Positions 1,605 through 3,868 of a stretch of 6,425 nt of DNA are shown piece after piece. Numbering within the stretch: the stretch's first letter is position 1; every line of letters begins with the position of its first letter. Both the position numbers and the translations under genes were made by a program. A model generated the notes under the pieces. That model worked only from the letters and a program-made list of their open reading frames with translations. It searched no databases and had not been told where the DNA came from. Origin of the DNA: a virus (taxonomy: Duplodnaviria > Heunggongvirae > Uroviricota > Caudoviricetes); the IMG/VR virus record IMGVR_UViG_2703718859_000020; one strand, written 5' to 3'.

Positions 1605-1793
1605 GTGTTAAGCACTGATCGGTTTATACGTGAAAAAGAATGCGAAAAGCTAACAGGCCTTAGCCGCTCATGCCGCTACCGCCTGGAAAAGGCCGGACAA
1701 TTCCCATCACGTCGTAAACTTGGCGGGCGTTCTGTTGGCTGGTCTTTATCTGAGGTTTTGGCCTGGAAGGATAGCTGCAAGGCAGTTCACTAA
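1605..1793 (+). CDS. alpA: AlpA-family (phage_AlpA / MerR-like HTH) transcriptional regulator, 62 aa
   Basis: GTG start at 1605 preceded by a strong SD (GAAAGGGGG, 1592-1600). The protein (RFIREKECEKLTGLSRSCRYRLEKAGQFPSRRKLGGRSVGWSLSEVLAW) matches the AlpA pattern of an HTH followed by a conserved G-W...E-W segment. Position immediately after a P4-type int is typical. Confidence 0.85.
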   Translation: MLSTDRFIREKECEKLTGLSRSCRYRLEKAGQFPSRRKLGGRSVGWSLSEVLAWKDSCKAVH

Positions 1794-1833: not shown

Positions 1834-1857
1834 CCGATACCGGGATCTCGGTATCGG
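1834..1857. repeat. 9-bp inverted repeat CCGATACCG-GGATCT-CGGTATCGG with a central GATC
   Basis: Read directly. It sits in the convergent zone between alpA (plus) and cassette B (minus). No flanking U-tract on either strand, so it is not a canonical intrinsic terminator. Confidence 0.4.
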
Positions 1858-1973
1858 GAATAAACGCCATAATACTGAGGTATAACCATGATGAAATATA
1901 CGCCCGTACAGGGGCGGGGATTCGTTCGCCCTGGTGAATCTGAAAAGCCATGCTATAGGGTATTTTCAGGCAT

Positions 1974-2003
1974 AAAAAAAGCGGTCCCGATATGGAACCG
2001 CCT
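1974..2003 (-). terminator. Rho-independent terminator for the minus-strand cassette transcripts
   Basis: Stem GCGGTCCC (1981-1988) / GGAACCGC (1995-2002), 7 of 8 bp paired, loop GATATG. On the minus strand it is followed by a run of 7 U (plus-strand A-run 1974-1980). Located 66 nt downstream of the cassette B second gene. Confidence 0.55.
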
Positions 2004-2069
2004 TTCTGAACAATTAACCCGCTGCGCCGTATGTGTCAACAATCATAAGCCCGAACATGATAACCGTGA

Positions 2070-2273
2070 TCAGGCTGGTGGGCAATTACCTTGCTTGTTG
2101 GGGCCGTATTGTGCTGCCATTTTCATCCGTTCAGAACGTGAATATTTTTTTAGAAACTCATCAAGGACAAAAGCGCATGGAGCGAATCTTTCTGATTCAT
2201 GCTCGAGCGCCATATTTTCGTGCTCTCTGTTCGTTTTTTGCGATGGTGTATTGGTTGATTCTTTATTGGTCAT
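2070..2273 (-). CDS. Small protein of unrecognised family, 67 aa (cassette B, gene 2)
   Basis: ATG at 2271-2273, stop at 2070. Paralogous to the 2787-3014 ORF: shared MTN start and motif F-x-L-[DE]-[DE]-F-x-x-K-Y-x-R (FVLDEFLKKYSRS vs FALEDFVDKYPRR), with the same 57-nt spacing from the upstream RHH gene. Weak SD. Confidence 0.45.
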   Translation of the reverse strand: MTNKESTNTPSQKTNREHENMALEHESERFAPCAFVLDEFLKKYSRSERMKMAAQYGPNKQGNCPPA

Positions 2274-2330
2274 TGTGTGTACCTGTAAAGCAATGCGCCG
2301 TAGTACCTCACGCCACGGCGCTGATAGTAA

Positions 2331-2510
2331 TTATTCTGATTCTTTGGCCTTGCGGCGCTGGCGGCGTTTGATCTCGCCTTTTGCTGCCGTAACTAGAAAT
2401 CCGGCGGTACTTTCGCCAGGTTCTTTAAGTTGCTCAATATCGGTCATTACCTCATGCGGGATTCTGACCGTTGTCATTTGTGATTTTGCGTTCTTTGCAC
2501 CTGTTGCCAT
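2331..2510 (-). CDS. Ribbon-helix-helix (CopG/Arc/MetJ-like) DNA-binding protein, 59 aa (cassette B)
   Basis: ATG at 2508-2510 with SD AGGAG 8 nt upstream. Sequence MATGAKNAKSQMTTVRIPHEVMTDIEQLKEPGESTAGFLVTAAKGEIKRRQRRKAKESE shows the RHH pattern: N-terminal beta-strand (TTVRIPHEV), helix A, a G-E-S-T turn, helix B, and a basic tail. The six-frame track extends this ORF to 2735, but the internal ATG with the SD is the supported start. Confidence 0.7.
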   Translation of the reverse strand: MATGAKNAKSQMTTVRIPHEVMTDIEQLKEPGESTAGFLVTAAKGEIKRRQRRKAKESE

Positions 2511-2530
2511 TTCTGGTTCTCCTGATAATC

Positions 2531-2623
2531 GGTGTATTTCAGTATACGCAAAAAAAAAGATAAAAAAAGTCTTGCGGTGTATTTCACCTGAATGTAGATT
2601 TAAAAATGAAGGTGAAATACACC
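2531..2623 (-). promoter_or_regulatory. Cassette B promoter with three copies of operator motif GGTGTATTTCACC
   Basis: Minus-strand -10 TATACT (plus 2541-2546) about 31 nt upstream of the start codon; the -35 is poor (T-rich). Motif copies at 2531-2542, 2576-2588 and, inverted, 2611-2623; the last two form a perfect 13-bp inverted repeat with a 22-bp spacer. Confidence 0.5.
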
Positions 2624-2634
2624 CAAAACAACAA

Positions 2635-2678
2635 CGCCCCGCAGTGATGGGAACACATACGGGGCGTCTAACCAAACC
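2635..2678 (-). repeat. Conserved GC hairpin (CGCCCCG-N18-CGGGGCG) followed by TCTAACCAA, upstream of the cassette B promoter
   Basis: Read directly; a homologous element lies upstream of the cassette A promoter (3385-3427). On the minus strand the hairpin is followed by a T-rich tract (TTGTTGTTTT). Confidence 0.4.
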
Positions 2679-2747
2679 ATTAATTGAGGTAACGATTATG
2701 GCTATAAAAGAGCATAGCTTACTCTTTATACACACACAAACGCCCCG

Positions 2748-2767
2748 GAAACGGAATAATCCGTTTC
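2748..2767 (-). terminator. Weak hairpin after cassette A gene 2 (GAAACGGA-ATAA-TCCGTTTC)
   Basis: 8-bp stem with a 4-nt loop, 20 nt downstream of the stop at 2787. Only a weak T-rich tract follows on the minus strand. Confidence 0.3.
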
Positions 2768-2786
2768 ATAGTTCGGTTTTGTGCAC

Positions 2787-3014
2787 TCATCCTGGCGGTC
2801 GGTTTTTGCCGGATTTAAGCCGCCGTGGGTATTTATCGACAAAATCTTCAAGGGCAAATTTTTCTGGTGGCACTAAGCGCGGCGCTGGTGGTGGTATTTT
2901 TGTTCTGGTTAGTTCTTCCTCAACTCTGGCGCAGGCTTCTGACTGCCTTTGCCGGATGATTTCATCATCTTGCGTTTGCGTGTCTTGTATTGGTGATAGT
3001 GTGTTGTTGGTCAT
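2787..3014 (-). CDS. Small protein of unrecognised family, 75 aa (cassette A, gene 2)
   Basis: ATG at 3012-3014, 57 nt after the RHH stop; paralog of the 2070-2273 ORF (same motif and position). Weak SD (AGGG). Confidence 0.45.
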   Translation of the reverse strand: MTNNTLSPIQDTQTQDDEIIRQRQSEACARVEEELTRTKIPPPAPRLVPPEKFALEDFVDKYPRRLKSGKNRPPG

Positions 3015-3071
3015 GATACTGCCCTGTAAAGCAATGCGCCGTAGTACCTCACACCACGGCGCTGATAGTGA

Positions 3072-3251
3072 TTATTCTGATTCTTTGGCCTTGCGACGCT
3101 GGCGGTATTCAACTTCCCGCTTTAATGCAGCTGTAACAAACTGCCCTGTACTTTCGCCGGGCATTTTTACCGCCTCAACATTGTTCATAACTTCATGTGG
3201 AACCCTTGCCGCAACTGTTTGTGATTTTGCGTTTACTGCTTTTGTCGCCAT
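3072..3251 (-). CDS. Ribbon-helix-helix DNA-binding protein, 59 aa (cassette A)
   Basis: ATG at 3249-3251 with SD GAGGGG 8 nt upstream. MATKAVNAKSQTVAARVPHEVMNNVEAVKMPGESTGQFVTAALKREVEYRQRRKAKESE is 36/59 identical to the cassette B RHH protein and has the same length and RHH pattern. Confidence 0.7.
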   Translation of the reverse strand: MATKAVNAKSQTVAARVPHEVMNNVEAVKMPGESTGQFVTAALKREVEYRQRRKAKESE

Positions 3252-3280
3252 GTTGAGCACCCCTCATAAAAAACAAATGC

Positions 3281-3353
3281 AGTATGCAGGAAAAAAAACA
3301 AGTGTTCAACACTTGACGTGTTTAACACCTCGATTTAAATTGGTGTTCAACAC
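3281..3353 (-). promoter_or_regulatory. Cassette A sigma70-like promoter overlapped by three palindromic operators GTGTT-N-AACAC
   Basis: Minus-strand -35 TTGAAC (plus 3304-3309), 17-bp spacer, -10 CATACT (plus 3281-3286), about 30 nt upstream of the start codon. 11-bp palindromes at 3302-3312, 3318-3328 and 3343-3353; the first overlaps the -35. Confidence 0.5.
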
Positions 3354-3384
3354 CTTATTTAGGCAAGGTGTAGAAACGACGAAA

Positions 3385-3427
3385 CCCCGCACTGTAGGAG
3401 CAGTAACGGGGCTTCTAACCAACAACG
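3385..3427 (-). repeat. Conserved GC hairpin (CCCCG-N17-CGGGG) followed by TCTAACCAA, upstream of the cassette A promoter
   Basis: Homolog of the 2635-2678 element, in the same position relative to the promoter. Confidence 0.4.
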
Positions 3428-3634
3428 TAAACGAGGAGCCGTTATGGTTGCCGTAAATCATATACCACACCTTGTACACACACAAACGGCCTTTGTGTGG
3501 CGTTTTCTGGCACTGAGTGCCGGAGAATCTCAAATAATCCACGTAACCGCCTGGACGGAACGCGAAGCACGTAACCGTTGCCCGTCAGGTTGTGTTGCTG
3601 TATTCGCCGCCCGTATTCGCCAGGGGGTAGGCTT

Positions 3635-3868
3635 ATGAGCCAGGAAATCACACTACAACAGGCAGCAGAACGCGCCCACCAAATCGAAGTTATTTGCGCA
3701 CTGGCAGAGGATTACCCTGGCATGATGACCGACAGCGAATCAGGGGCAATCATCGGCTTACTTAAACGCCTTAGCGGTGAGGTCTGCGTATTCCTGAGCG
3801 ATGAACAGGAAAGAAGAACGCTTATTTCTAACGAAAAAAAATGCGGAGGGGTACACCATGTGCAATAA
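3635..3868 (+). CDS. Small helical protein, 77 aa, first gene of the replication-side operon
   Basis: ATG at 3635 with SD AGGGGG 7 nt upstream. The track ORF 3578-3868 has an earlier start with no SD. Its stop overlaps the next ORF's start by 11 nt. Confidence 0.5.
   Translation: MSQEITLQQAAERAHQIEVICALAEDYPGMMTDSESGAIIGLLKRLSGEVCVFLSDEQERRTLISNEKKCGGVHHVQ

Follow-up and report, generated by a model that had tools for sequence, protein, structure and literature searches.

Two allelic ribbon-helix-helix cassettes as candidate immunity repressor modules in a capsid-forming PICI-type satellite of Escherichia coli

In lambda, immunity is organised as heteroimmune sets of cI repressors and OR operators, and in the Arc/Mnt systems the gene for a small ribbon-helix-helix (RHH) protein is the first gene of a two-gene operon. 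In the satellite P4, the start of the long open reading frame (ORF) eta lies after vis, the alpA homologue, and upstream of the early promoter. Only on transcripts from the late promoter is eta translated; this keeps them from terminating, and they extend into the replication genes (PMC10111431, citing Forti et al. 1999). The repressor Stl (Rpr) of Staphylococcus aureus pathogenicity islands (SaPIs) and other Gram-positive phage-inducible chromosomal islands (PICIs) is encoded beside the int region, divergent from the replication operon, with the control sites in between; AlpA is a PICI activator, and whether Gram-negative PICIs have a global repressor is unclear (PMC6092414). Here we describe a tandem array of two small two-gene cassettes located between alpA and the replication operon in a 6,425-nt stretch of DNA (the window, IMG/VR virus record IMGVR_UViG_2703718859_000020, Caudoviricetes). 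Each cassette encodes an RHH protein and a second small protein, termed g2. The evidence favours, with moderate confidence, the view that the cassettes are two different immunity repressor modules rather than a toxin-antitoxin (TA) system, and it is probable, to much the same degree, that the region as a whole is the immunity and regulatory zone of a capsid-forming PICI-type phage satellite of E. coli.

The array consists of two units in direct orientation on the minus strand, repeated with a period of 741 bp, and in its basic anatomy it is as a preliminary description of this DNA had it. Unit A comprises RHH-A (3251..3072, 59 amino acids), a spacer (3015-3071) and g2-A (3014..2787 in the ORF list, 75 amino acids), and unit B comprises RHH-B (2510..2331, also 59 amino acids), a spacer (2274-2330) and g2-B (2273..2070, 67 amino acids). 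RHH-A and RHH-B are identical at 36 of 59 positions (BLASTP E 4e-25), and the two g2 products have in common an MTN start and the motif F-x-L-[DE]-[DE]-F-x-x-K-Y-x-R. Both spacers measure exactly 57 nt and contain the same minus-strand hairpin, GCGCCGTGGYGTGAGGTACTACGGCGC, which lies at 3036..3062 in unit A, where it is terminator-like (-24.3 kcal/mol, z -3.2), and at 2295..2321 in unit B; the same sequence occurs in 25 IMG/VR loci. The hairpin shows no real covariation, since its six basal G-C pairs are invariant and the seventh pair varies without compensation. Three features of the array had been overlooked: a remnant of an icd start at unit B, a block of approx. 95 nt that is nearly identical in the two units, and a stop-free frame of 522 codons on the plus strand.

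According to structural modelling, each unit begins with a gene for an RHH protein of the Arc/MetJ/CopG superfamily, a predicted DNA-binding protein that belongs to the YlcI/YnfO family. RHH-A and RHH-B match NCBIfam NF041551 (YlcI_YnfO_N) with 59.7 and 62.1 bits, respectively, against a cut-off of 30, and both also match PHROG 949, to which no function has been assigned. Pfam gave no significant match for either protein, and Pfam DUF3950 is matched by one other allele only (type G, see below). Relatives occur throughout the Enterobacterales (more than 317 clusters), whereas a tblastn search with RHH-A against 50,697 phage records returned no match. The fold, which had been proposed from the sequence pattern, is borne out by an AlphaFold2 model built with 30 homologues (predicted local distance difference test score, pLDDT, 86.9), in which an extended N-terminal segment reaching residue 18 is followed by helices at residues 19-28 and 35-58, with the G-E-S-T turn at residues 32-35, i.e., a strand-helix-turn-helix layout. 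Of the structural checks, this prediction gave the RHH fold, whereas Foldseek returned no matches and a sequence-profile search of the PDB no hits; hhalign against single Arc and CopG sequences placed the strand and the G-x-S turn in the correct register with low probability. The proteins do not belong to a well-characterised housekeeping regulator family, a possibility raised in the preliminary description: YlcI/YnfO is a named family, and no function for YlcI, YnfO or DUF3950 was found in the literature consulted.

Each unit has its own operators, three copies of a motif that is present only in that unit (0.17-0.24 sites would be expected by chance). The A-type operator, GTGTTNAACAC, lies at 3302-3312, 3318-3328 and 3343-3353, and the B-type operator, GGTGAAATACACC, at 2531-2543, 2576-2588 and, inverted, 2611-2623; outside their own unit, both motifs are absent from the window save for a single-mismatch A-like site at the alpA start. 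In unit A, sequence reading and a conserved scaffold place a promoter-like site for RHH-A (TTGAAC-17-CATACT) on the minus strand at 3281..3309, its -35 element being inside operator 3302-3312, and a predicted promoter of the icd-rep operon (TTGACG-17-TAAATT) on the plus strand at 3313..3341, with operator 3318-3328 in its spacer and a -35 element, CTTGA[CA]G, that is found in all alleles. In unit B, the -10 element of RHH-B (TATACT) is at approx. 2541-2546, and the counterpart of the icd promoter is an orphan promoter-like site (TTGCGG-17-TAGATT, plus strand, 2572..2600) with a B operator in its spacer, again at a scaffold position conserved in all alleles. In every allele, the 17-nt spacer of the conserved plus-strand promoter holds one operator, and a second is located at or just past the predicted plus-strand start; an operator also follows the -10 element of the RHH promoter. 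Such a pattern is expected of a repressor controlling both promoters, and the autoregulation suspected earlier is likely because each RHH gene comes with operators of its own.

The slot occupied by RHH-A and RHH-B is highly variable. In approx. 40 E. coli and IMG/VR loci it holds at least 10 different first genes, most of them YlcI/YnfO types that differ chiefly in the β-strand (KSQTVAARVPHE in RHH-A, KSQMTTVRIPHE in RHH-B), some of approx. 100 amino acids and some Arc-like RHH genes of another lineage. For the eight tabulated alleles, a distinct motif is repeated two to three times at the same places of the scaffold: GTGTTGAACAC (A), GTGAAATACAC (B), GTGAATCGCAC (C), CTGGATTCCAG (D), GTGTAAGACAC (E), GTGACTTGCAC (F), TGTGCGCACA (G) and GTGTTTCATG (H); the motif of the Arc-like allele I1 is ATGGTAATTACCAT. 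When 70 RHH genes from more than 20 species of Enterobacterales, typed by β-strand sequence, were set against the eight motifs, the resulting matrix was essentially diagonal, with off-diagonal counts of approx. zero, also between genera. For example, type B loci (25 loci in more than 8 genera) have 2.0-2.6 B sites per locus and zero sites of the other motifs, and the A motif accompanies type A in 11 loci, including those of Edwardsiella and Kosakonia; the A motif was found only upstream of A-type and the B motif only upstream of B-type RHH genes. The fact that the β-strand sequence predicts the operator motif in 70 genes provides strong indirect support for sequence-specific DNA binding, and the RHH proteins would recognise operator DNA through this strand. 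Judged from these sequences, the correspondence is one of repressor/operator co-evolution as in heteroimmune phages. It should be noted that the alleles of approx. 100 amino acids (L031, L058, L063, L066 and L024 of our locus collection) consist of the RHH domain and a helical C-terminal extension (...ARRQAEGSGENPLVSSLDALAKVEQIG...) and still end in the common tail and hairpin.

This organisation can be compared with two well-known immunity systems. As in the cI/OR1-3 region of lambdoid phages, three operators lie in a divergent promoter region, and there are many allelic repressor/operator specificities with conserved flanks permitting exchange; however, the repressor is an RHH rather than a helix-turn-helix protein, there is no Cro-like counterpart, and there is no sign of SOS cleavage. 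With P22 immI (Arc, Mnt, Ant), CopG and omega, the cassettes share a small RHH protein, here a candidate repressor, and repeated or palindromic operators overlapping divergent promoters; as with Arc/Mnt, RHH comes first in a two-gene operon, and Arc-like alleles occupy the same slot in some islands. They differ from immI in that g2 is not Ant-like and in that the YlcI/YnfO alleles fall below the Pfam thresholds for RHH families.

The genomic position also points to a repressor. In most of 25 loci from 25 species (the genera include Edwardsiella, Kosakonia, Yersinia, Xenorhabdus, Pectobacterium, Hafnia, Raoultella and Erwinia), the RHH gene lies between alpA/int and icd/rep and is divergent from icd; in several of these loci the available DNA contains no detectable match to int, alpA or icd. 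The same position, next to int, divergent from the replication operon and with the control sites in between, is found in the approx. 40 E. coli loci and is that of a PICI master repressor. The earlier suggestion of paired island repressors at the location where SaPI-type islands place theirs fits both the synteny and the operator scaffold. The likeness to Stl is one of position: there is no relation in sequence or fold, the protein here being a 59-residue RHH, and int and alpA are on the strand opposite to RHH, whereas in Gram-positive PICIs int is located to the left of the repressor gene and is codirectional with it (PMC6092414). No paper linking PICIs to an RHH repressor was found in the literature searched.

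It is reasonable to assume that a complete module is composed of a promoter with three operators, a small RHH protein, the conserved hairpin and a small helical g2 protein. By binding the three GTGTTNAACAC sites that separate its gene from icd, RHH-A would repress both its own promoter and the divergent icd-rep promoter, holding the island quiescent. RHH-B, which has a different recognition strand, would bind only the GGTGAAATACACC sites of unit B. Since the B operators occur only in unit B, RHH-B is predicted to control just itself, g2-B and the orphan promoter in this island. Most likely, and it is a reasonable assumption, unit B would provide a second immunity specificity, directed, for example, against type-B satellites.

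The whole array is antisense to the stop-free plus-strand frame (1888..3456, 522 codons), which resembles the read-through ORF eta. The frame begins with a Shine-Dalgarno (SD) sequence, GAGGT, and an ATG at 1888, 95 nt after alpA, and it is antisense to all four genes and to every intergenic stretch of the array. The chance of finding no stop codon was estimated by synonymous resampling for the four genes (0.30-0.68 each) and by shuffling for the two spacers (0.42 and 0.48), for segment 1888-2069 (0.031) and for intergenic regions A (0.017) and B (0.0014), which gives approx. 5e-9 for the entire frame. The third codon positions of the four minus-strand genes and of the plus frame share coordinates (≡ 0 mod 3), which is the least constraining overlap phase. 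The frame is open in nearly every allele and locus and spans the RHH gene in all 25 species loci, whereas the remaining two antisense frames stay open over no more than 100-350 nt. In many loci (L045, L033, L029, L057, L062 and L069) it continues in frame into the Icd/Kil-like protein, which forms its end. Indeed, the Icd-like protein of the window, a homologue of P4 Kil encoded by the first gene of the replication operon (3444..3638, plus strand; annotated in the E. coli strain 10 island, L001, by the Prokaryotic Genome Annotation Pipeline, PGAP), is 78% identical to the C-terminus of the long ORF in a related locus, and this long ORF shares 38% identity (E 2e-15) with eta of P4, which has kil as its terminal part. 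The amino acid sequence specified by the frame is not conserved between alleles, and the antisense translation over g2 is rich in Cys and Ser. Because the frame is kept open while the protein is not conserved, selection seems to act on its openness and not on a protein.

Within the context of the P4 immunity region (vis, eta/kil and the early and late promoters PLE and PLL), the parallels are considerable: both regions have an alpA/vis homologue, a long ORF that ends as or at Kil/Icd and a replication operon, the long ORF begins between vis/alpA and the early promoter, and homology to P4 Eta/Kil extends to the Icd-like protein as well as to the long ORFs in related loci. The two differ in that the P4 immunity factor is the CI RNA, encoded on the same strand, whereas the array consists of protein repressor cassettes on the opposite strand, and in that the rest of the present island is of PICI type. 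By analogy with eta, transcripts from an alpA promoter activated by the helper would be translated across the array and could then enter icd-rep in spite of the repressor, and such convergent transcription might also counteract expression of the repressor genes. The avoidance of stop codons would be the footprint of this translational read-through.

The second gene is less readily interpreted. Pairwise similarity between g2-A and g2-B is weak (E 0.006), and both fit one small family in which only the C-terminal part, P-x-x-F-A-L-E-x-F-[LV]-x-K-[YH]-P-R-R-L-K, is conserved. The family comprises approx. 30 clusters (22 representatives among 1.84 billion proteins) and has no distant relatives hinting at a function. 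g2-B, of the E. coli-restricted g2 family, matches phrog_21027 (E 2e-12), a PHROG without an assigned function; Pfam, NCBIfam and PADLOC gave no significant match, the best entries being far below their cut-offs (e.g., Cas8g with 17.6 bits vs. 125), and there is no similarity to Ant or any antirepressor family. In the AlphaFold2 model of g2-A, a helix at residues 9-38 and a Pro-rich linker precede a short helix at residues 54-61, which is the conserved motif; the helices are confident (block pLDDT up to 95), and the predicted template modelling score (pTM) of 0.35 indicates no globular fold. Loci containing g2 were sought with a degenerate DNA pattern. Each first-gene allele of the approx. 40 E. 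coli and IMG/VR loci is followed by the conserved hairpin and a g2, with g2-A paired with RHH types A, C, D, E, F and G and with Arc-like genes, and a further type, g2-S, with C, G, H and Arc-like genes. A tblastn search detected no g2 in the 25 species loci, many of which lack any ORF after RHH. In appearance, g2 is an accessory protein that is independent of the allele and expressed from the repressor promoter; it would be co-transcribed with the repressor without being specific to its allele. As a matter of speculation, it may act on a conserved partner, e.g., Icd, AlpA or a helper protein.

The history of the array is recorded in the uneven divergence of its units. DNA alignment gives an identity of mostly approx. 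60%, except for approx. 95 nt that are nearly identical and correspond to the last 12 RHH codons and the spacer. This block of low divergence (3015-3110), together with the first 16 g2 codons (2967-3014), in which synonymous divergence (dS) is 0.1 compared with approx. 1.0 over the remainder of g2, lies at the border across which RHH and g2 types are swapped, and it may be a recombination joint or a functional nucleic acid element. Upstream of unit B, the alignment reveals the icd-start remnant (2698..2742, plus strand), which consists of an SD sequence, an ATG and approx. 15 codons in frame with the long plus ORF; the match to the region upstream of unit A ends at a common ACACACACAAACG, the junction with unit A. 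Both types are also found as single cassettes in other genera: an A-type RHH of Edwardsiella hoshinae (L002, 6001-6171) is identical to RHH-A over 57 residues and has A-type operators, which fits the transfer of satellites or immunity modules between genera, and a B-type RHH that is 90% identical occurs in Yersinia. Because A and B exist singly elsewhere, the array is taken to have arisen by the joining of two modules; the "tandem duplication" of the preliminary description is, on this sequence evidence, two long-diverged alleles brought together by recombination, with unit B contributing the promoter, leader and start codon of a decapitated icd. The arrangement had also been called unusual. 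It is not rare, however: of 5,426 complete E. coli genomes, 111 contain the junction (126 places) and 343 the conserved spacer block (458 places), and the array occupies more than one attachment site. The cassette proximal to alpA always has g2-B, while its first gene varies (B, Arc-like and others), which suggests continued exchange of alleles and not decay.

Several other explanations deserve consideration. Local duplication followed by divergence would account for the direct orientation, the identical architecture and the identical spacer length, and the truncated icd start and orphan promoter could mean that unit B is a functionless recombination scar. Together these possibilities are considered unlikely, although they are the most serious of the competitors. 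Duplication is contradicted by the allele distribution, in which each type occurs separately in distant genera with its own operators, and by the fact that the N-terminal parts of the proteins and the operators are far more diverged than the 95-nt joint. A scar would hardly be expected to preserve both RHH-B and g2-B, along with the three B operators, in intact and identical form across several islands, to swap the alleles of its alpA-proximal cassette among islands, or to leave the plus frame open at the junction (741 = 3 x 247). It could also be argued that RHH is the autoregulator of a small cargo operon (RHH and g2) in a variable slot and does not control the replication operon, in which case operators near the icd promoter would merely reflect the back-to-back arrangement of the promoters. 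Such a view would agree with the induction of EcCICFT073 by alpA alone (PMC6092414), with the designation of the slot between alpA and the replication zone as a dynamic zone (PMC10111431) and with the prediction that unit B regulates only itself in the window. Nonetheless, it seems improbable, as the position of RHH divergent from icd is kept in more than 20 species even without g2, and every allele has one operator in the spacer of the plus-strand promoter and a second at or just past the predicted start.

The preliminary description had put forward a type II TA or abortive-infection module with RHH as antitoxin and g2 as toxin. Type II TA systems with RHH antitoxins (ParD, RelB, TacA and HicB) do have the RHH fold, the upstream operators and the layout in which RHH precedes a small second gene, and the weak SD sequence of g2 and the terminator-like hairpin before it would lower the amount of g2 made. 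However, a cognate, co-inherited pair, a toxin-neutralising region and a toxin fold or family were all sought and none was found. Pairing is free, for g2-A goes with seven allele groups and types C and G also go with g2-S; the Arc-like alleles lack the common basic C-terminal tail and are yet combined with the same g2; and RHH is often alone, g2 being undetected in the species loci and RHH lacking it in most genera. The modelled RHH elements fill nearly all 59 residues and leave no room for a toxin-binding domain, g2 matches no toxin or defence family and is modelled as two helices with a low pTM, and the genes are 57 nt apart instead of overlapping. A TA function is accordingly very improbable, and a PADLOC search gave no meaningful match to a defence system. 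A different doubt concerns the coding status of g2, whose frame might be a by-product of keeping the opposite strand free of stops. The ratio of nonsynonymous to synonymous divergence (dN/dS) over g2 is alike in the two frames (0.38 vs. 0.42), which follows from the coincidence of third codon positions; substitutions at mismatched sites score as no more conservative when read in the g2 frame (-1.17) than when read antisense (-0.95), whereas in the RHH control replacements are more conservative in the sense frame (-0.37 vs. -1.09); and PGAP annotates no g2 in E. coli O157:H7. In spite of this, the g2 ATG is kept at a fixed 57 nt from the RHH stop, the C-terminal motif is kept with conservative replacements in members that are otherwise unalignable, the ratio of substitutions at codon positions 1 and 2 (1.22) resembles that of RHH (1.17), the AlphaFold2 helices are confident, and the antisense product is Cys/Ser-rich and varies among alleles. 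A non-coding g2 is therefore rather improbable, and with good confidence g2 is regarded as a real protein.

The interpretation as paired immunity repressor modules also has to be weighed against several observations. In the window, the long frame is out of frame with icd, and its stop is located 13 nt past the icd ATG (ATGGTTGCCGTAA). Half of the sampled tandem arrays have the frame broken into a pair of ORFs, which overlap by approx. 60 nt and the second of which holds the ATG of the icd remnant in frame. The promoters were called as consensus matches, whose number in the region does not exceed that in shuffled sequence, and strand-specific selection on g2 could not be demonstrated. The operators of unit B head no intact operon, and unit B may be without function or a tolerated relic. 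Moreover, alpA is necessary and sufficient for induction of EcCICFT073, which was explained without invoking a repressor, and Gram-negative PICIs are reported to be induced through alpA (PMC6092414). The analogy with P4 is only partial because no P4-type CI/C4 RNA was found: the 1.2-kb region gave no Rfam match to C4 or isrK at E values up to 10. The region thus appears to be neither a TA module, nor a known defence system, nor a P4-type RNA immunity region; its logic resembles lambdoid or P22-type immunity set on the RHH fold, with a regulator in the position of Stl and an embedding of P4 eta/kil type.

The identity of the island follows from its relatives. A 99%-identical stretch is part of an island of E. 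coli strain 10 that is inserted in tqsA and contains, in order, genes for an integrase, AlpA, the four small proteins, the Icd-like protein, small ORFs, DUF4222, a RepA-family helicase, a single-stranded DNA-binding protein (SSB) and PerC, followed by the major capsid protein, prohead protease, portal, connectors, HNH protein and small terminase (terS). This order agrees with the capsid-forming PICI gene set as in EcCIEDL933 (bioRxiv 10.1101/2022.09.08.507074), and the order in the window is int, alpA, cassettes, icd, repA; judged from gene content, the window corresponds to the left end of a satellite of this capsid-forming PICI type from E. coli. In the strain 10 island, PGAP labels both RHH genes as "YlcI/YnfO family protein" and both g2 genes as "hypothetical". 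In an EcCIEDL933-type island of E. coli O157:H7 TW14359 (L069; NC_013008.1, 3041-3445), it omits the Arc-like RHH gene and g2 and marks a plus-strand "Icd-like" pseudogene over them. The genes c1499/c1500 of EcCICFT073 were considered as the cassette genes and rejected; they are capsid-like genes located elsewhere in that island.

The alpA gene (1605..1793, plus strand; Pfam PF05930, E 5e-18), which encodes a homologue of the Phage_AlpA family of activators/excisionases, is upstream of the long frame and codirectional with it. The A-like operator site with one mismatch, GTGTTAAGCAC, lies exactly over its GTG start (1605-1615); it is probably a coincidence, as the same alpA sequence goes with other RHH alleles. 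Between alpA and the start of the long frame there is a perfect 12-bp hairpin (1834..1857, plus strand, -17.4 kcal/mol, z -3.6) with no U-run after it. In the int-alpA intergenic region, positions 1381-1462 give a weak Rfam match to the Brucella small RNA BSnc120 (27 bits vs. a gathering score of 114, E 0.0045), which overlies a hairpin-containing, AT-rich segment and is in all likelihood due to chance.

Further hairpins are found on the minus strand. A terminator-like hairpin follows g2-A (2748..2767, -18.6 kcal/mol, z -3.1), and an intrinsic terminator composed of a hairpin and a U run follows g2-B at the end of the array (1975..2007, -20.4 kcal/mol, z -3.1). A leader hairpin occurs in two copies: copy A (3381..3415, z -2.9) is in the 5' leader of icd and reads as a terminator on the minus strand, and copy B (2633..2668, -33.5 kcal/mol, z -5.8) is followed by a U-rich tract on that strand. 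This hairpin is strongly conserved and separates the operators from the icd start; its segment was found in 517 E. coli genomes, and it is also present in the O157:H7 island. Rfam has no family for it or for the spacer hairpin. A minus-strand RNA ending at the leader hairpin would be approx. 80 nt long and antisense to the SD sequence and ATG of icd. In one group of loci (L054-L056), the first RHH gene has been lost and the hairpin and a g2-like gene are kept beside an Ash-family gene (approx. 1380-2340 in L055); a complete cassette of an Arc-like RHH gene and g2 follows, and an AntA-family gene adjoins alpA.

A broader proposal can be offered only tentatively, and we consider it possible rather than probable. 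According to it, the YlcI/YnfO RHH proteins would be the missing master repressors of Gram-negative and capsid-forming PICIs, with at least a dozen heteroimmune types, and the alpA-driven, translated antisense frame would form a switch based on convergent transcription, by which the helper out-transcribes the repressor rather than inactivating it. The second cassette could then be a weapon or shield between satellites, conferring cross-immunity against type-B islands, and the target of g2 might be a conserved partner, be it Icd, AlpA, a helper protein or the like.

Enterobacterales commonly harbour Gram-negative and capsid-forming PICIs, which mobilise virulence and defence genes. Only AlpA has been studied so far in the control of these islands, and the present analysis provides a concrete candidate for the Gram-negative PICI repressor, with predicted operators for at least eight specificities; it also ties PICI control to the translation-dependent antitermination logic of P4. 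At a practical level, the small cassette genes escape annotation in E. coli O157:H7. A hypervariable repressor cassette that is antisense within a stop-free frame, with the third codon positions of both strands aligned, is an unusual genome feature and appears to offer a natural example of a frame selected for being open and not for its protein. If the repressor function is true, it would be the first function for the YlcI/YnfO (DUF3950) family.

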